Positions 5,246 to 57,801 of a stretch of DNA of 64,000 bases are shown here, in pieces. Position 1 is the stretch's first letter. Every line of letters starts with the position of its first letter. The DNA comes from Candidatus Magasanikiibacteriota bacterium (GTDB lineage: Bacteria; Patescibacteriota; Patescibacteriia; Magasanikbacterales; GWA2-37-8): contig JBAYNU010000002.1 of assembly GCA_041678665.1 (NCBI GenBank), forward strand, positions 5,039 through 69,038, given 5' to 3'. Under the pieces are notes generated by a model. That model made no database searches, was not told where the DNA came from, and was given only the letters and a program-made list of their open reading frames with translations. A program made the translations under genes and the position numbers.

Positions 5246-5596
5246 ATGTCAAAACGAAAAACCATAAAAATTGATGCCCTCGGTCAAGTGCCGGGTAGGT
5301 TGGCCACTCAAATCGCCACTATTCTTATGGGCAAAGACAAAGCAACTTATGCCCCGCATCTTGACGCAGGTAGCATCGTAAAAATTGCCAACGTTGGTAA
5401 AGTAAAATTTACCGGAAAAAAGATAGATCAAAAATTATATCGTCATCACTCCAATCATCCGGGTGGTCTCAAAGAGATTCCCGCTAAAAAAATGTTGGCT
5501 GAAAATCCAGAGCGTATTATTATTAGAGCAGTGGAAAAAATGTTGCCAAAAAATAAATTACGCGATCTTAGAATGGCACGCTTAAAATTTGAATAA
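5246..5596 (+). CDS. rplM: 50S ribosomal protein L13
   Basis: L13 family; L13-S9 pair. Confidence 0.85.
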   Translation: MSKRKTIKIDALGQVPGRLATQIATILMGKDKATYAPHLDAGSIVKIANVGKVKFTGKKIDQKLYRHHSNHPGGLKEIPAKKMLAENPERIIIRAVEKMLPKNKLRDLRMARLKFE

Positions 5597-5626: not shown

Positions 5627-6034
5627 ATGACTAAAATAAATAAGAACCCGTCAGTTTTTAGAGCCGTGGGACGACGTAAAACCGCCAGTGCTCGTGTTAA
5701 AATTGACAAAGGCAGTGGTAAAATCATCGTCAACGGCGTAGATTACAAAATATATTTTCCTCATTTTGAGCTGAATGAGTCAGTGTTGGCTCCTTTGAAG
5801 GCGGTAGGAAAAGAAAAAGATCTAGATGTGTCAGCAAAAGTTTCTGGCGGTGGCAAGAAAGGTCAAGCCACTGCTGTTCAACATGGGATTGCGCGTGTTT
5901 TGGTGATTTGGAATGATGAATTTCATAAGACTCTCAAAACACAAGGGTATCTTACTCGCGATCCTAGATCAAAAGAACGAAAGAAATTTGGTCTCAAAAA
6001 AGCCCGACGCGCACCACAGTGGTCGAAGCGGTAA
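5627..6034 (+). CDS. rpsI: 30S ribosomal protein S9
   Basis: C-terminal ...KKARRAPQWSKR S9 signature. Confidence 0.9.
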   Translation: MTKINKNPSVFRAVGRRKTASARVKIDKGSGKIIVNGVDYKIYFPHFELNESVLAPLKAVGKEKDLDVSAKVSGGGKKGQATAVQHGIARVLVIWNDEFHKTLKTQGYLTRDPRSKERKKFGLKKARRAPQWSKR

Positions 6035-50026: not shown

Positions 50027-50169
50027 ACAAAGAAGGAATAAAGAATAAGGATTAAGGAATAAACGAACACAAAATATATTTACTCCTTAATTTTTATTCC
50101 TTACTCATTATTATACCACAACCAAAAAACCCGGCAATACAACCGGGCTTTCGTGTCAAGTAGGGTAAA

Positions 50170-50604
50170 TTATTGGCTCTTGGGGAGACGCTTGTACTTC
50201 TTTCCAACATTAATGCGGTTCATTTCGCGATCAATCACGGCTTGTAAACGGGCATAATCCACATCTTGAACATTTTTGATTTTTTCCATTTGTTCCTGTG
50301 CTCTTTTATGGGCTTCCTGCGCCCTCGCGACATCAATTTCTTCTACCCGTTCAGCATTATCGGCCAAAATAACAATTTCGTTATTACCGCGCACTTCCAA
50401 AAATCCACCGGCCACGGCAATTGGATGATCCCCCGCTTTATCCACAATACGCATCTCCCCGGCTTTGAGAACGGAAACAAGCGGAATATGATTGGGCATA
50501 ACCGTAATTTCACCGTCCATGGTGGGGATGGTTACTTGCGTTACTTCGGTATTTTCGTAAACCACCTTTTCGGGGGTCGCTATCTTAAATCTTAGATTTG
50601 ACAT
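50170..50604 (-). CDS. atpC: F1 ATP synthase epsilon subunit
   Basis: beta-sandwich plus C-terminal helices; last gene of the atp operon. Confidence 0.85.
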   Translation of the reverse strand: MSNLRFKIATPEKVVYENTEVTQVTIPTMDGEITVMPNHIPLVSVLKAGEMRIVDKAGDHPIAVAGGFLEVRGNNEIVILADNAERVEEIDVARAQEAHKRAQEQMEKIKNVQDVDYARLQAVIDREMNRINVGKKYKRLPKSQ

Positions 50605-50673
50605 ATTTATTTACGATACACGATACATGGAAAATGATACATTTGTATATTATTCCATGTATTTTGCATGCTG

Positions 50674-52065
<1,392 letters not shown>

Positions 52066-52439: not shown

Positions 52440-53399
52440 TTATTCCAACGCCGCCGATCCACCGGCGATTTCCGCAATTTCTTGCGTGATGCCGGCCTGG
52501 CGGGCTTTGTTAAAATTCAAATTTAATTCTTTGATCATATCGGTGGCCGCTTCAGACGCGTTTTTCATGGCCATCATGCGGGCGCTGTGTTCGCTGGCGG
52601 ACGATTCCAAAAGCGCTTGAAAAATTTGCGTTTCTACCAAACGCGGTAAAATAATTTTTAAAACCTCGGTACGATTTGGTTCAAATAAATATTCGCCTAG
52701 TTCGATTTTTGGTTCGCTTACTCCTTGTTCCTTATTCTTTATTCCTTCATTATCCCCGATCATCTTTTCCAAATCCACTTCCGACACCGGCAAAACCTGT
52801 CTTAACTTAGCCACCTGCGCGATGGCCGATTTAAAATCGGTGTAAGCCACTACCACCTTGTCGTATTTGCCGGATTCGTAATCCGCAATTATTGTACGCG
52901 CAGCCGGCAAAATATCTTTGAGCCCGGGAGTATCTGGCAGTCCGGTATAAGACGCGGTTAAATTGTATTTCATTTTTTTGGCAAATTCGGCGCCTTTTTT
53001 TCCAATTCCCAAAACATCCACCTCAATATTATCGGACGGCTCTACTACTTTTCCGGCCACGCGCTGGCGACTAATATTTTTGGGATCCTGGAGTTGCGCC
53101 GCCGTCTTGCGAATGATATTGGCATTGAAACTGCCGCACAGCCCGCGATTGCTGGTAATCAAGATCACTAATAATTTTTTCACCGGCCTAATATCCATAA
53201 GAGCAATGCCTTCGCGCTCGCCTTTGGAAAGATTTACCAAAAGATCCCAGGCCATTTTGGCATAGGTGCGCGTGTTTTGCGCCGCTTCCACCGCTTTTCT
53301 CATCTTGACGGCGGACATCATTTCCATGGCTTTGGTAATCTTTTTGGTATTACCCACGGATTTGATGCGACGTTTGATTGCTTTGGTATTTACGGCCAT
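52440..53399 (-). CDS. atpG: F1 ATP synthase gamma subunit (contains a family-B repeat-derived segment)
   Basis: N-terminal IKRRIKSVGNTKKITKAMEMMSAVKMRKA; start taken at MAVNTK (ORF track extends to 53408 with a non-ATG start). Confidence 0.9.
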   Translation of the reverse strand: MAVNTKAIKRRIKSVGNTKKITKAMEMMSAVKMRKAVEAAQNTRTYAKMAWDLLVNLSKGEREGIALMDIRPVKKLLVILITSNRGLCGSFNANIIRKTAAQLQDPKNISRQRVAGKVVEPSDNIEVDVLGIGKKGAEFAKKMKYNLTASYTGLPDTPGLKDILPAARTIIADYESGKYDKVVVAYTDFKSAIAQVAKLRQVLPVSEVDLEKMIGDNEGIKNKEQGVSEPKIELGEYLFEPNRTEVLKIILPRLVETQIFQALLESSASEHSARMMAMKNASEAATDMIKELNLNFNKARQAGITQEIAEIAGGSAALE

Positions 53400-53425
53400 A
53401 CTTAACAATATACAAAATACATGGA

Positions 53426-53797
53426 TTACGATACACTTTCTATTTTTTCTTCTAATTTATCTATTGTCACCCAAATCATTTTTCCTATTTCATTAGACAT
53501 TTCCAAACCGACATTATATTCATCTTTACTAATCCAGTTCTGAATAAACGCGAAATATATTATATACTTACATTCTTGCGACGAACCATGTGATATCTCA
53601 TAAAAATTTAACTTAACTTTGTCTCGCCTACGCGCGTATCCCTCAACATAATTCAACATTATAGACATTGATGCTCGGCGCAACTGCGAACTAACGCCAT
53701 ACAATTCATTACTTGGAAAATTTTTCACTATCTGATAACAGTATAAAACGAATCTATTAATTTTATTTTTCAACAATACATGAAATTTTCCCTCCAT
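53426..53797 (-). CDS. four-helix-bundle protein (23S rRNA intervening-sequence protein family) inserted between atpA and atpG
   Basis: LRRASMSIMLNYVEGYARR...HGSSQECKYIIYFA core matches the TIGR02436-type four-helix-bundle family; flanked by inverted repeats. Confidence 0.75.
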   Translation of the reverse strand: MEGKFHVLLKNKINRFVLYCYQIVKNFPSNELYGVSSQLRRASMSIMLNYVEGYARRRDKVKLNFYEISHGSSQECKYIIYFAFIQNWISKDEYNVGLEMSNEIGKMIWVTIDKLEEKIESVS

Positions 53798-53828
53798 ATA
53801 AATTTGTATATTTTTCCATGTATATTGT

Positions 53829-55319
53829 CTATTGTTTCACAAACTCTTCACAAGCCCCCTTCAATTCCGCTTCAATCTTTTCATCCCAATCCGCTTTGGC
53901 GATTTTGCTCAAAAGCGCGGATTTGGAACGATTGAAAAATTCATGAAATTTATTTTCCCATGTTTGCATCCCGGCTACCGGCACGTTATCGGCAAAACCA
54001 TTGGACACGGCGTAAATAATTGCCACTTGGTTGGCCACATTCATCGGCTGATATTGCGGTTGTTTGAGCACTTCCACTAAACGCTGGCCCAAATCAATTT
54101 GTTTTTTGGTGGCTGGATCAAGGTCGGACGCAAACTGGGCAAACGCTTCCAACTCACGGAACTGGCCCATGTTTAATTTTAATTTGCCAGCGACTTTTTT
54201 CATGGGTTTAATTTGAGCATCACCACCTACACGCGACACGGATAAGCCCACATTTACGGCCGGGCGAATACCACGGAAATACAAATCCGATTCCAAAAAT
54301 ATCTGACCGTCGGTAATGGAAATTACATTGGTAGGAATATAGGCGGTCACATCACCGGCTTGAGTTTCGATAATTGGTAAAGCGGTAATGGATCCACCGC
54401 CGGCTTCTTTATTGCGGCGACAAGCGCGCTCCAAAAGACGAGAATGAAGATAAAACACATCACCCGGATAGGCCTCGCGACCCGGTGGGCGACGCAGTAA
54501 AAGCGAAATTTCACGGTAAGCCCAAGCCTGTTTAGATAAGTCATCATACACGCAGAGCACATCTTTACCTTGGTCCATAAAATATTCCGCCATGGCCACA
54601 CCGGCATAGGGCGCAATATAAGAAAGTGAAGCGGGCTGCGACGCGCCAGCCACCACGACGATTGTATAGTCCATAGCGCCATGTTCTTTGAGTTTAGCTA
54701 CAATACGCGCGATCTTGGATTCTTTTTGACCGATGGCCACATACACACAAATCATGTTCTGACCTTTTTGATTGATAATTGTATCAATGGCCAAAGCAGT
54801 TTTCCCAATCTGGCGATCGCCAATGATAAGTTCGCGCTGACCGCGCCCAATTGGAAACATAGCATCAATAGATTTAATGCCGGTCTGCACTGGTTGGTTA
54901 ACCCGTTCGCGCTTCATTACACCTGGAGCAATTTTTTCGATTGGATAAAACTTTTCGGTTTTAATTTCCACACCGCCATCAATTGCTTTGCCCAAAGGAT
55001 TTACCACACGACCAATAAGTTGTTCACCTACTGGAACAGATAAAATGCGACCAGTGCGCTTAACAGTATCACCTTCTTTAATATGGGTATATTCACCCAA
55101 AAGCACCGAGCCAACGGTTTCTTCCTCGAGGTTTAAGGCCACACCATATGTACCGCCAGAAAACTCAAGCATTTCGCTGGCCTGACATTGCGAAAGTCCA
55201 CTCATACGAGCAATTCCGTCGCCGACTTCGATTACTTTTCCCACTTCTTCCACTTCTACTTGTTTTTCAAAAGCGGAAATATTTTTGCGCAGTTCTTCTA
55301 CTATGGAATTGATAGACAT
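53829..55319 (-). CDS. atpA: F1 ATP synthase alpha subunit
   Basis: GDRQIGKT P-loop; start at [10 protein letters not shown]. Confidence 0.95.
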
Positions 55320-55324
55320 AATAA

Positions 55325-55403
55325 ATTTAATTAACAATTAACAATAAACAACTAACAAGTCAGCATACCGATTTGTTAATTGCTAATTGTTAGTTGTTAA
55401 TTT
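55325..55403. repeat. AT-rich inverted repeat built from AATTAACAA units (family C), atpH-atpA intercistronic
   Basis: AATTAACAATTAACAATAAACAACTAACAA ... TTGTTAATTGCTAATTGTTAGTTGTTAATT; same unit string at 671-704 inside alaS. Confidence 0.5.
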
Positions 55404-55813: not shown

Positions 55814-55915
55814 TTGTCATCCTGAGTGAGCGAAGCGAATCGAAGAATCTGTGATTATTCGCCGATAAATTCTTCGACTTCATTCACCTTTGGCTCATTT
55901 CGCTCAGAATGACAA
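55814..55915. repeat. family A palindromic repeat copy, atpF-atpH intercistronic
   Basis: TTGTCATCCTGAGTGAGCGAAGCGAATCGAAGAATC...GAATTCTTCGAC...CGCTCAGAATGACAA. Confidence 0.7.
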
Positions 55916-55927
55916 ACGTATTACTGC

Positions 55928-56485
55928 TTACTTCTTTACACTATCAAGCATCTCCTCAATAATTTTCTTGTCCTTTTTCTCATCAATTTTTTCACTCAAA
56001 ATCTTTTCCAGGGCAGACACAATTAATCCAGCGGTTTCTTCTTTTAAATCCTTAACCATACTTTCTTTCTCGGTTTTAATATTGCGTCTGGCCGTTTCTA
56101 CTAATCCTTCAATCTCTTTTTTGGCTTTTACTTTTAATTCTTCCGACATTTTACCGGCTTCAACATTGGTCTTTTCCAAAATTTTGTTGGCTTCCACTTT
56201 GGCGGTGTCGATACGCGCTTGATAATCGCGCTCGCCACGACGCAAAGTTTCTTCAACTTTTTTGGAATTTTCGATACTATCATCAATCATTTTCTGACGC
56301 TCGACCATCTTCTTGGTGATTGGTTTTAGTATCAAATACCAAACCACTACCATTACAATGGCAAAATTAATGGCTTGAAATACAAATAATTGGCCATTAA
56401 TGCCAAGCGATGCCAAAACACCGGTATCGGCGGTCACCTCTGTGTGTTCGCTGGTGGTTTCTAAATTAATTTGTTCCATAATCAT
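55928..56485 (-). CDS. atpF: Fo ATP synthase b subunit
   Basis: single N-terminal TM followed by long charged helix. Confidence 0.85.
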   Translation of the reverse strand: MIMEQINLETTSEHTEVTADTGVLASLGINGQLFVFQAINFAIVMVVVWYLILKPITKKMVERQKMIDDSIENSKKVEETLRRGERDYQARIDTAKVEANKILEKTNVEAGKMSEELKVKAKKEIEGLVETARRNIKTEKESMVKDLKEETAGLIVSALEKILSEKIDEKKDKKIIEEMLDSVKK

Positions 56486-56502
56486 GAAATGTTAAATTAT
56501 CA

Positions 56503-56545
56503 AACTGTTAAATTGTCACAAAAGCAATTTGACAATTTAACAGTT
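56503..56545 (-). promoter_or_regulatory. perfect 16-bp stem-loop between atpE and atpF (candidate mRNA stability/processing element)
   Basis: AACTGTTAAATTGTCA-N11-TGACAATTTAACAGTT, 18 nt upstream of the atpF start codon. Confidence 0.5.
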
Positions 56546-56604
56546 TAGCAATTTAGCGCAAACGATCTGATTTGACCAGACCAAAATTGATCCAGTCAAT
56601 CAAA

Positions 56605-56826: not shown

Positions 56827-56959
56827 ATTTTTAGACCTTTACGACACAACTTCGACGAAGGGAAAATATTTTTTACTTCGCAAAGTTACATCTTTATTAA
56901 AACATTAAAGCATGAAAACATTAAAACAAACTGTTTTTATGTTCTCGTGTTCTGGTGTT

Positions 56960-57736
56960 TTAATGTTCGCTTTCGCCGTGCGGCGCCGTGGTCATTACTG
57001 TGAGATATACCAAGGTCAACATGGTAAATACCGCCGCTTGAATCAAACCGACTAAAATTTCCAAAAGCATAAACGGGGTTGGTACAAATAACCCTACCAA
57101 ACTACTCATCACTGTCATTAAAACTTCGCCAGCAAAAATATTACCAAATAACCGCAAAGATAAAGATAATACTTTGGCCATTTCCGAAATAATTTCCAAA
57201 ATCCCCACGAATAATTCAATAAAAGCGGTAAATATAGCGATCGGTCCCTTTTTTAAACTTTTAATAAAACTGCCGATTTGAATAAATTTGTTTAGATGAG
57301 TAAAAAGACCCACGGTAATAAAACCAAACAAATGTGAAACCACTACCGATGTCAAAGCCATGGCTACAGTAAGATTAAGATCGGTGTTGGCCGGACGCAA
57401 TAACATTTTACCGCCCCAAGTAATGGAACCGGTACCAGGAATAAGACCGAGCCAATTGGAGAGTAAAATAAAAAAGAAAACCGAACCGACGATGGGCAAA
57501 AAACGCATAGTCTTTTTTCGATCTCCGGTTACTTGATCAAAATATCCCAATAAAATTTCTAAAAAATATTCAATAAAATTTTGTAATTTTTTGGGGCGAA
57601 GCGAAATTGACTTGCGTAAAATAATACCTAACACCAAAAAAATAATCAAAGCAATCCAAGTATTCAGCATGGTATTGGTGATAGCGAAGCCTCCGATGGT
57701 AGTGAGTGTATCCGGTGCTAATGTCGGTATGTGCAT
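56960..57736 (-). CDS. atpB: Fo ATP synthase a subunit
   Basis: 5-6 TM, conserved Arg-containing helix (LSLRLFGNIFAGE). Confidence 0.9.
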   Translation of the reverse strand: MHIPTLAPDTLTTIGGFAITNTMLNTWIALIIFLVLGIILRKSISLRPKKLQNFIEYFLEILLGYFDQVTGDRKKTMRFLPIVGSVFFFILLSNWLGLIPGTGSITWGGKMLLRPANTDLNLTVAMALTSVVVSHLFGFITVGLFTHLNKFIQIGSFIKSLKKGPIAIFTAFIELFVGILEIISEMAKVLSLSLRLFGNIFAGEVLMTVMSSLVGLFVPTPFMLLEILVGLIQAAVFTMLTLVYLTVMTTAPHGESEH

Positions 57737-57743
57737 AATTGGT

Positions 57744-57801
57744 TTGTCATCCTGAGTGAAACGAAGGATCTAGATTCTTCGACTACGCCTCAGAATGACA
57801 A
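57744..57801. repeat. family A palindromic repeat copy (short form), exactly fills the atpZ-atpB intercistronic gap
   Basis: TTGTCATCCTGAGTGAAACGAAGGATCTAGATTCTTCGACTACGCCTCAGAATGACAA. Confidence 0.7.

Follow-up and report, generated by a model that had tools for sequence, protein, structure and literature searches.

The window, that is, the whole stretch of 64,000 nucleotides (64 kb) analysed here, comes from a candidate-phyla-radiation (CPR) bacterium in which a gene of the rRNA 'intervening sequence' (IVS) kind stands between two ATP synthase genes. The operon order, on the minus strand, is atpA, a gene for a 123-residue four-helix-bundle (4HB) protein (positions 53426–53797, minus strand) and atpG. 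The upstream neighbour atpA (F1 alpha; 53829–55319, minus strand) ends with a TAG stop at 53829–53831, and the downstream neighbour atpG (F1 gamma; 52440–53399, minus strand) starts with the ATG at 53399. Profile searches match the 4HB ORF to PF05635, 23S_rRNA_IVP (E value of 1.5e-26; 93.1 bits against a cut-off of 33.8), and to TIGR02436 (91 bits against a cut-off of 24, above the curated threshold), that is, to the S23p or '23S rRNA IVS protein' family, in full agreement with the coordinates and identity that an earlier note had read from the sequence of this DNA. The solved structural relative of the protein is 2GSC (XCC0516; E value of 4.3e-8) and, to our knowledge, PF05635 has no known catalytic motif. 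The GC content of the gene is 0.32 as compared with 0.45–0.50 in the atp genes. Seventy-seven homologues were found, many of them shortened to 75–85 residues, and an alignment of 41 sequences has 25 invariant columns. The 4HB protein is clearly under purifying selection (pN of 0.16–0.28 against pS of 0.63–0.85, pS being saturated). Scans of the operon region gave no excess above chance of either promoter-like sites (27 versus 19.6 ± 3.7 expected) or terminator-like sites (13 versus 10.1 ± 3.5 expected), and none of these has a position that would convincingly account for the start or the end of 4HB transcription. The atpG–atpD junction holds another inserted gene, of 122 residues, which the earlier note had overlooked.

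Inverted repeats flank the 4HB gene, as had been noticed, but they are longer than reported. The two half-sites described earlier, TATACAAAATACATGGA at 53409–53425 and TCCATGTATATTGT at 53815–53828, are present at these positions, and an inverted-repeat search extends them to 32-nt arms that are 81% complementary. The upstream (5′) arm (53805–53836, minus strand; sense AACAATAGACAATATACATGGAAAAATATACA) overlaps the last atpA codons and the TAG stop. The downstream (3′) arm (53404–53435, minus strand; sense TGTATCGTAATCCATGTATTTTGTATATTGTT) takes in the final three codons of the 4HB gene with its stop codon and finishes 4 nt ahead of the atpG ATG. In the minimum-energy fold of the 451-nt region the two arms form a closing stem of ∼26 bp, and the 4HB gene, oriented as the atp operon, is placed in the loop of this long stem. 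The terminal stem alone is exceptional, the fold of the entire region being no more stable than that of shuffled sequences (z=−0.7). Terminal inverted repeats of this type correspond to the long stem of IVS-type elements as well as to the terminal inverted repeats (TIRs) of a transposon or MITE, and an S23p-family ORF in the loop is what distinguishes the ORF-bearing subclass of IVSs. The 9-mer TCCATGTAT or its complement occurs four times in the 64 kb, against 0.45 expected by chance (four are reached in none of 100 shuffles). Its occurrences are confined to the atpA–atpG and atpD–atpC loci, at variance with a general ribosome-binding context repeated before atp genes, the explanation against which the earlier note had cautioned.

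The second of these loci is the spacer between atpD (F1 beta; 50674–52053, minus strand) and atpC (F1 epsilon; 50170–50604, minus strand), two junctions away from the 4HB gene and its arms, named here the 4HB cassette. It holds an ORF-less hairpin copy (50613–50671, minus strand) in which both arms of the cassette are joined head to head at the apex. The outer stem consists of AUACAUGGAA/UUCCAUGUAU; the inner stem is AUAC/GUAU in the minimum-energy fold, with ATACA/TGTAT complementary in the sequence. That two half-sites adjoin here without a gene had been proposed and holds true, including the spacing in ATACATGGA-N22-TCCATGTAT. The hairpin folds at −20.1 kcal/mol (z=−5.3; none of 200 shuffles equally stable) and aligns in register with gene-bearing elements. 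In these two sites the earlier note had seen what looked like the occupied and the empty site of a mobile cassette. The cassette is indeed portable, with the same arms and gene in non-homologous contexts (see below), but atpD–atpC is not an empty target: it carries a complete ORF-less copy in which both arms are joined. The two copies of the arms in the window are 76% alike, which is not more than copies from different genomes, and hence do not point to a recent move within the window genome. The presence of a gene-less copy of the hairpin two junctions away indicates that elements of this type are portable and can reside outside rRNA.

Comparison of related atp operons confirms that the atpA–atpG junction is normally gene-free. 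The gap has a median of 13 nt in 73 related operons and reaches at least 250 nt in only five, and none of the 73 has a 4HB gene at this junction, which is occupied only in the window genome; the occupancy that the earlier note suggested comparing is thus not shared by relatives. A profile HMM built from 4HB homologues detects the gene in only one of 80 related atp loci, at another junction. At atpD–atpC, the site of the bare hairpin in the window, three relatives (L004, L089 and L090–92) carry arms and gene. Other relatives, for example locus L003, have naive junctions with no hairpin at all. Three states can therefore be distinguished at atpD–atpC: no hairpin (L003), hairpin only (the window) and hairpin with gene (L004, L089 and L090). 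Vertical inheritance combined with a single relocation could account for the occupancy in the three relatives.

The association of arms and gene extends beyond the atp operon. At least 10 homologues from other CPR genomes, 57–73% identical, carry the same arms, with the core ACATGGAA/TTCCATGT. Arms of the ACATGGAA type together with the gene are found in five unrelated contexts: atpD–atpC, Na/Ca exchanger–AdoHcy hydrolase, hypothetical–methyltransferase, hypothetical–mnmA and DAG kinase–tRNA-Leu. The inverted repeat is perfect over 30 nt in locus L083 and over 24 bp in locus L090. In every CPR context the 4HB gene has the orientation of at least one neighbour, and in six of eight that of both. 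In locus L106 a frameshifted 4HB gene, seen on at least 24 contigs, stands inside intact arms. Two 4HB genes may also bracket other genes, as in the 4HB–cyclophilin–4HB arrangement of L004 and in L106. The second 4HB gene of L004 has beside it a heptamer-family hairpin that contains no gene, and an in-frame hairpin lies inside atpG of the same locus.

Both the sequence and the pairing of the arms are conserved. Eleven elements (that of the window and 10 others) aligned in register have 81.8% of cells paired, against 31–53% in slid registers. Pairs changed on both sides number 14 as compared with 8.5 ± 1.7 in shuffles (reached by 1 of 500), and the covariation score is 0.182 against 0.116 (reached by none of 500 shuffles). 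Compensatory changes, exemplified by ACAGGTA/TACCTGT in L089 and by GAGACA...CGAGACA on both arms in L090, could arise from concerted evolution rather than from selection for pairing. Between elements the arms are 72–79% identical and the outer flanks 32% identical; the arms are also far better conserved than the synonymous sites of the 4HB gene, which are saturated. The stems show no excess of G·U pairs over A·C mismatches (17 versus 13, P=0.58), so that the constraint on pairing could concern DNA and sense RNA alike. The arms are degenerate tandem heptamers (lag-7 autocorrelation of 0.49 versus 0.345 expected, z=8.8), each ∼30-nt arm comprising about four degenerate heptamers of the form nnnnACA, with TGGAAnA as the third heptad.

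Complementary flanks are a feature of the wider 4HB family. Flank-to-flank complementarity with z<−3 is seen for 11 of 15 CPR 4HB genes and for 2 of 68 control atp genes (Mann–Whitney P=6e-7). Distant CPR 4HB genes whose arms are of unrelated sequence still pair, as in L102 and the second gene of L106 (z of −3.3); at L004b a short repeat is visible, with a flank complementarity of only z=−1.8. Inverted heptamer arms, differing in sequence from those of the window, also surround 7 of 11 4HB genes of cyanobacterial plasmids. At these loci 3 of 16 neighbouring non-4HB genes have complementary flanks as well, which rejects an exclusive link with 4HB genes and leaves an enrichment. Some of the heptamer-flanked cyanobacterial-plasmid 4HB genes are wedged into cas operons.

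Taken together, the feature is probably an rRNA-IVS-type hairpin-loop cassette residing in a protein-coding operon, and the bare hairpin a derivative of it that lacks the ORF. Such a cassette, devoid of its own promoter and terminator, would be read through within the atp transcript, and its arms would pair in the RNA as a ∼26-bp duplex around the 4HB cistron. RNase III may then cut the stem, by likeness to the 23S rRNA IVS of Coxiella. Cleavage would free the 4HB mRNA and leave the operon RNA in two pieces, atpBEFHA and atpGDC, with half-stem ends. Over evolutionary time the cassette is portable, and in the lineage of the window its main location is atpD–atpC. In the window genome the atpD–atpC copy would have lost its ORF, giving the bare hairpin, with the intact copy at atpA–atpG. 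The ORF probably moves or disappears at the hairpin apex through recombination using the arms, and the 4HB protein itself might have a role at these arms. A tblastn search with an approximate E. coli Rnc sequence found no rnc in either the 64 kb or the fetched loci, which are small parts of their genomes.

The closest known counterpart of this proposal is the 23S rRNA IVS of Coxiella burnetii, in which a 28-bp terminal-repeat stem encloses an S23p ORF, GACAGAT heptamers lie ahead of the ORF and excision by RNase III is proven (PMC4990558). ORF-bearing 23S rRNA IVSs also occur in Leptospira, according to work cited there (PMC4990558). The atp cassette shares with 23S rRNA IVSs the PF05635 family, the location of the ORF in the loop of a terminal-repeat stem of ∼26–30 bp, the tendency of the ORF to decay while the stem persists and, probably, the dependence on host read-through transcription; heptamer repeats beside the ORF are common to it and the Coxiella element. 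However, its host RNA is the mRNA of the atp operon and not a 23S helix; the window contains no rRNA, and no Rfam family reaches its gathering score anywhere in it, which places the cassette outside the rRNA insertions to which IVSs belong. It also differs from 23S rRNA IVSs in the clear purifying selection on its protein, in the recurrence of its arms in several protein-coding contexts together with an ORF-less copy, and in that RNase III cleavage is here only presumed.

Native hairpins of the operon offer a different origin for the structure. The heptamer hairpin would be a regulatory element of the host, acting in mRNA stability or translational coupling, and the 4HB gene an incidental passenger of its loop, an idea close to the alternative of the earlier note that an intercistronic hairpin had captured a gene. 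All other atp spacers indeed hold a long, significantly stable and ORF-less hairpin with repeat-built arms: atpH–atpA (−31.6 kcal/mol, z of −8.2), atpE–atpF (z of −4.2), atpB–atpE (z of −5.3) and the one following atpC (z of −7.0). Almost all long hairpins of the 64 kb are within the atp operon, and relatives have ORF-less hairpins at atpA–atpG (L003, −37.6 kcal/mol) and at further junctions. There is also a precedent in the short tandemly repeated repetitive (STRR) sequences of cyanobacteria, whose 7-bp tandem repeats form hairpins between co-transcribed genes, for example hupS–hupL, with a proposed role in transcript stability or translational coupling (PMC2670836). The atp hairpins resemble STRRs in their tandem-heptamer arms, intercistronic site and hairpin potential, and differ from them in that one hairpin family has a gene in the loop and in that the host is a CPR bacterium rather than a cyanobacterium, so that the likeness is one of kind and not of shared ancestry. 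Capture of a gene by a hairpin therefore keeps the abundance of ORF-less heptamer hairpins in its favour, but the ACATGGAA-type arms travel with the 4HB gene into contexts unrelated to atp, and inverted repeats also enclose those 4HB genes whose arms differ. The latter observation ties the coupling of gene and arms to the gene family and not to the atp operon. A purely native hairpin with a passenger gene is thus an improbable account of the cassette.

Similarly doubtful is a DNA-level origin, in which the cassette would be a non-autonomous, MITE-like transposon with cargo, its arms serving as TIRs for a transposase encoded elsewhere, the RNA stem being a by-product and the bare atpD–atpC hairpin a miniature derivative. 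Several properties are those expected of such an element. The terminal repeats keep their core sequence and not pairing alone, presence or absence is polymorphic between genomes, the lack of a G·U over A·C bias is compatible with a constraint on DNA, and the paired 4HB genes around other genes in L004 and L106 are reminiscent of a composite arrangement. Yet none of 12 elements inspected has a direct repeat outside the arms that could represent a target-site duplication, and no transposase is encoded within the element or the fetched flanks of any CPR locus. Moreover, the orientation follows the host operon in every CPR context (at least one neighbour), and the arms consist of tandem heptamers with no unique terminal sequence. 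Relatives on viral contigs are likewise lacking: a protein-pattern scan found no 4HB relative, and a pattern scan gave two matches, both due to chance, inside coding sequence and without a 4HB gene. REP/RAYT systems (REPINs) combine a single gene between inverted palindromic repeats with gene-less intergenic copies in the same genome, and the cassette gene is similarly flanked by an inverted repeat that also stands gene-less in a spacer. The encoded protein is, however, a four-helix bundle of ∼120 residues and not the HUH/Y1 transposase that defines a RAYT gene, and there is only one gene-less copy in 64 kb.

The distribution of the gene largely refutes the view that it is an ATP synthase accessory gene passed on by vertical inheritance, such as one for an assembly or regulatory factor, with repeats that would serve only translational coupling. 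The purifying selection on the protein, and the fact that atp junctions make up four of the nearest homologous contexts, would agree with such a function. However, 78 of 80 related atp loci lack the 4HB gene, the junction differs between genomes, members of the same subfamily are found in operons of other kinds and the family is represented elsewhere by rRNA IVSs and by Avd, the accessory protein of diversity-generating retroelements (DGRs), which makes this function very improbable. That the protein is itself an Avd, which binds nucleic acid and reverse transcriptase, hardly deserves consideration: the shared four-helix-bundle fold and weak matches to bAvd PF22296 (31.9 bits) and NF033474 (31.6 bits) point to a distant homologue, but the scores are under the curated cut-offs (40 and 80 bits, respectively) and the neighbours are atp genes, with no reverse transcriptase or template/variable repeat nearby.

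An integron gene cassette was also considered and rejected, there being repeats on both sides of the ORF and no integrase among the called genes of the operon locus. In the searchable literature no account was found of 4HB cassettes that are bounded by repeats and lie outside rRNA, nor of 4HB genes tied to heptamer arms.

The IVS-type cassette of the atp operon may belong to a larger group. It is conceivable, although we hold it only tentatively, that PF05635 4HB genes and tandem-heptamer hairpins constitute one widespread and previously unrecognised class of semi-autonomous elements, which would embrace 23S rRNA IVSs, the heptamer-flanked 4HB genes of cyanobacterial plasmids and the operon cassettes of CPR bacteria. 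In such elements the heptamer arms, either in RNA form or as folded DNA, would be recognised by their cognate oligomeric 4HB protein, which, by analogy with RAYT and REP, would help them to spread, to be maintained or to be processed. The non-autonomous progeny of the class would be heptamer hairpins that lack an ORF, among them STRRs and in-frame hairpins within genes such as atpG of L004.

The ORF of rRNA IVSs was described in the early 1990s and has lacked an assigned function ever since, and the heptamer repeats of cyanobacteria have stood unexplained since 1990. At the locus described here, a gene and its repeat-built arms form one conserved and portable unit in an ordinary mRNA operon, and the ORF-less sister copy, together with the intermediates in relatives, detaches the phenomenon from ribosome biology. 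It also provides material for experiments, namely an RNA of ∼450 nt whose stem is defined, a 14-kDa protein that is soluble and the arms cognate to it, with about four heptads each. CPR operons for highly expressed complexes thus carry hairpin cassettes of a selfish or regulatory nature, which may fragment CPR mRNAs, with consequences for the annotation of these genomes and for the reading of CPR transcriptomes.

The atp operon occupies the minus strand of the window and comprises an atpI-like gene (58090–57803), atpB (57736–56960), atpE (56826–56605), atpF (56485–55928), atpH (about 55802–55407), atpA (55319–53829), the four-helix-bundle (4HB) gene (53797–53426), atpG (53399–52440), a 122-aa open reading frame (orf122; 52434–52066), atpD (52053–50674) and atpC (50604–50170). 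Consistent with the family assignment of the earlier note, a profile search shows that the 4HB product is a clear member of PF05635 (93 bits) and TIGR02436 (91 bits); the sole solved structure related to it by sequence is XCC0516 (2GSC). The window is part of a metagenome contig of Candidatus Magasanikbacteria (CPR/Patescibacteria); NCBI labels the 4HB protein Magasanikbacteria, and an identical copy is encoded on ENA contig ERZ27247350 k141_1703092 (94.6 kb) and on one Logan contig. Both inserted genes are far AT-richer than the atp genes (GC of 0.32 for the 4HB gene and 0.34–0.37 for orf122 versus 0.45–0.52). The second of them, orf122, is separated from atpG by 5 nt and from atpD by 12 nt; searches of Pfam and NCBIfam gave no match for it, its flanks show no strong repeat (z −2.1), and all 80 related atp loci lack it.

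The 4HB feature is real and well defined. The inverted pair of flanking repeats described in the earlier note exists, but its arms are longer than claimed, at 32 nt each (53404–53435 and 53805–53836; 81% complementary). The atpA stop codon lies within the upstream arm, and the downstream arm covers the final 4HB codons and stops 4 nt short of the atpG ATG. In the predicted fold of the 451-nt sense RNA, the arms form the closing stem, made of 7, 4, 9 and 6 bp interrupted by single-base bulges and one small internal loop. The 9-mer TCCATGTAT occurs four times in 64 kb, counting either strand (0.45 expected by chance), nowhere but at the atpA–atpG and atpD–atpC sites, the two junctions where the earlier note had placed the half-sites. 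One side of the atpD–atpC spacer aligns to the upstream arm and the other to the downstream arm, and folding of this ORF-less region (50613–50671), a check that the earlier note called for, yields a stable two-tier hairpin (−20.1 kcal/mol, z = −5.3).

In 73 related atp operons collected by an AtpG search, the atpA–atpG spacer has a median length of 13 nt and reaches at least 250 nt in just five. A profile built from 4HB homologues detects a 4HB gene in only 1 of 80 other loci (L004) and never at atpA–atpG, in agreement with the view that this junction is normally gene-free. L004 is the nearest genome in the collection (AtpG 71%, AtpD 84–85% identity to the window). Its atpD–atpC junction contains a 4HB gene, a lipoprotein cyclophilin gene and a second, distant 4HB gene (L004b). 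The first of these 4HB proteins is 73% identical to that of the window, the best match among 5.8 billion proteins, and its gene is flanked by the window's arms, ACAATATACATGGAATAAAATACAAAATTT upstream and AAATTTGTATATTAGTCCATGTATTTTGTAT downstream. Homologues at L089 and L090–92 (64–65% identical) likewise lie at atpD–atpC. Because arms and gene recur there in L004, L089 and L090, three states of this junction can be distinguished among relatives: a 22-nt spacer devoid of hairpin (L003), a bare hairpin (the window) and a hairpin with 4HB gene (L004, L089 and L090). The proposal that the window's atpD–atpC hairpin represents the empty site is thus not borne out, the hairpin-free spacer and the occupied hairpin both existing at that same junction.

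Pairs of 4HB genes enclose other genes at L004 (7470–8991, the cyclophilin arrangement) and at L106 (3001–5695), where a frameshifted 4HB gene is followed by an NTP-transferase gene, a pilin-like gene and another 4HB gene; such arrangements may be composite units, or no more than a consequence of how densely these cassettes occur. Unrelated genes also lie between atp cistrons in a minority of CPR atp operons (L046, L068, L021, L076, L029, L090 and L004), including CYTH, YbaK-type editing domain and C39-like peptidase genes (L046), a CdiI_5-like gene (L090) and a 348-aa membrane-anchored ORF (L004). Several metagenome-assembled genome records (third-party annotation; L004, L006, L007 and others) are titled 'uncultured Gammaproteobacteria' or 'Bdellovibrionales' despite clear CPR-type atp operons, and these taxonomic labels should not be trusted.

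The cassette, that is, the arms with their gene, is portable. Further 4HB homologue loci, retrieved singly, all carry the arms (L083, L086, L089, L090–92, L093, L095, L096, L101 and L110). The gene is found between a hypothetical gene and a methyltransferase gene (L083 and L101), between Na/Ca exchanger and AdoHcy hydrolase genes (L086), upstream of mnmA (L093 and L095), between DAG kinase and tRNA-Leu genes (L096) and at a convergent junction (L110). At L083 the arms form a perfect 30-nt repeat, AAAATACAAAATACATGGAATAAAATACAA and its exact complement. In every CPR context the 4HB gene is co-oriented with its operon (at least one neighbour). This agrees with operon transcription; another possible cause is that insertions in the antisense direction are selected against.

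Eleven elements, aligned without gaps on the core of their arms, show that the pairing of the arms and their sequence are both constrained. Over a 33-pair helix, 81.8% of cells are standard pairs, versus 31–53% when the 3′ partner is shifted by 1–3 columns; both partners have changed in 14 pairs (8.5±1.7 in shuffles, 1 of 500 reaching 14), and the covariation score is 0.182 (0.116 in shuffles, none of 500 reaching 0.182). The core is altered in both arms of L089 (ACAGGTA/TACCTGT), and two heptads are rewritten in both arms of L090 (GAGACA, CGAGACA) while its 24-bp stem stays perfect. Mean pairwise identity is 72% in the arms, 79% in the inner 24 columns and 32% just outside. For the enclosed gene, pS is saturated (0.63–0.85), pN is 0.16–0.28 and dN/dS, where computable, is about 0.1–0.2; together with arm conservation, these values show that purifying selection acts on both protein and arms. 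The arms themselves read as tandem heptamers, as in the upstream arms of L083 (AAATACA AAATACA TGGAATA AAATACA) and L090 (GGATACA CGAGACA TGGAATA CGAGACA); across all 22 arms, autocorrelation at lag 7 reaches 0.494 versus 0.345 in shuffles (z = 8.8; z≤2.4 at all other lags).

The atp operon accounts for nearly all of the window's long hairpins; in it, repeat-armed hairpins occupy all other atp spacers except those of atpG–orf122–atpD. Their arms are tandem 7–8-mers: TTAACAA at atpH–atpA (55329–55402; −31.6 kcal/mol, z −8.2), CTAAATTG at atpE–atpF (56470–56562; z −4.2), AACAnnAG at atpB–atpE (56896–56967; z −5.3) and AAGGAAT after atpC (50030–50112; z −7.0). Hairpins of this kind also stand at different atp junctions in relatives, and L004 atpG contains a full in-frame one, (ACGACGA)x4–loop–(TCGTCGA)x4 (about 5640–5720; −48.9 kcal/mol, z −4.6), whose heptamers are of the family flanking L004b. 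In at least two genomes, those of the window and of L004, the arms of a 4HB gene thus belong to a hairpin family that exists without the gene. An ORF-less hairpin also lies 1 kb downstream of the L083 cassette (5405–5520; −40.6 kcal/mol, z −6.6), with GAAACA-type heptads and only its core, ACATGGAAAC/GTTTCCATGT, shared with the cassette arms. At the place of the L004 in-frame hairpin, window atpG (52705–52751; peptide NEGIKNKEQGVSEPK) holds in-frame AAGGAAT-type heptads, 85% complementary to one arm of the post-atpC hairpin (50029–50075); these in-frame repeats are reminiscent of the palindromic elements within Rickettsia genes. Hairpins upstream of atpB (57736–57764) and in the atpF–atpH spacer (55895–55923) are built from a further repeat family, TGTCATTCTGAG...CTCAGGATGACA, which adds a spurious N-terminal extension (MKSKNLSANNHRFFDSLRSLRMTT...) to the atpH ORF.

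For each gene, the best RNA duplex that its 100-nt upstream and 100-nt downstream flanks can form was scored against shuffles, and by this measure association with arms is a property of the 4HB gene family. Values of z<−3 are obtained for 11 of 15 CPR 4HB genes but for 2 of the 68 atp genes scored at those loci (Mann–Whitney p = 5.6e-7). The positive cases include L102 (54% identical), ahead of ruvA with GC-rich, quite different arms, and the distant second 4HB gene of L106 (z −3.3), also with different arms; in L004b (37% identical), a short CTAACGACGA/TCGTCGATAG repeat can be made out by eye, but the score is only z −1.8. On cyanobacterial plasmids, 7 of 11 4HB genes have z<−3, with arms of inverted tandem heptamers (GGGTGTA/TACACCC, GGGAACA/TGTTCCC, CAGGAGT/ACTCCTG and GGGAAAA/TTTTCCC). 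In Picosynechococcus, GGAGATAA/TCTCCTTA flank a 4HB gene between cas10 and cmr3, short of the threshold (z −1.9 to −2.5), and in the Pseudanabaena plasmid (L120) the heptamer runs are direct, not inverted. Since 3 of 16 neighbouring non-4HB genes also have z<−3, the link in cyanobacteria is an enrichment and not exclusive. Heptamer-flanked 4HB genes lie inside cas operons on plasmids of Picosynechococcus (L113), Anabaena sp. 90 (L118) and Pseudanabaena (L120), in the orders cas10–4HB–cmr3 and cas6–4HB–cas4–cas1, which probably explains the appearance of 23S_rRNA_IVP in surveys of cas-associated genes.

Beyond the anatomy, conservation, portability and family-wide arm–gene link that these comparisons establish, the direction of change can be proposed. 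One 4HB gene of L106 is frameshifted, as seen on at least 24 contigs, with its inverted arms retained, and about 12 homologues in the protein search are truncated to 75–85 aa. In L004, AAATTT, its own reverse complement, directly abuts the ORF on both sides; deletion between the two copies would yield ATACAAAATTTGTAT, and the apex of the window's bare hairpin is ATACAAATGTAT. Taken together, these features suggest that the atpD–atpC hairpin is the remnant of an ORF-bearing copy and that the atpA–atpG copy may have relocated. At 76% identity, the two copies in the window do not stand out as similar, which argues that the events are old. No target-site duplication or transposase was seen at the elements inspected, and viral-contig scans found no phage link; gain and loss at the apex through recombination between homologous hairpin arms would fit the data best. 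Given the precedent of rRNA intervening sequences (IVSs), and because a signal scan found no clear dedicated promoter or terminator for the cassette, we infer that it would be transcribed within the operon, that its arms would pair in the operon RNA and that RNase III may cut the paired stem. A comparison of G·U with A·C pairs (17 versus 13) does not favour RNA over DNA.

The element is neither an integron cassette nor a MITE bearing target-site duplications, and its protein is not the Avd of a DGR. In REP/RAYT systems, too, a gene lies between copies of a palindrome that is also dispersed elsewhere, but the 4HB protein is no transposase. Cyanobacterial 7-bp tandem-repeat (STRR) hairpins (PMC2670836) are similar in arm structure and position. 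In its working the cassette is like an ORF-bearing rRNA IVS but differs in location, the defining feature; as the window contains no rRNA, the cassette is not filed as an IVS. 23S_rRNA_IVP ORFs are on record in CPR rRNA insertions (PMC11270868), and tables for Flavobacterium list 4HB genes between housekeeping genes (PMC5524665); no paper in the literature searched describes 4HB cassettes bounded by repeats within mRNA operons, or a link between 4HB genes and heptamer arms. The element is best classed as a 4HB hairpin cassette of IVS type located outside rRNA, with a putative mechanism, the bare hairpin being classed as its ORF-less derivative. That the association of arms and gene extends across phyla opens the function of the IVS ORF to experiment.
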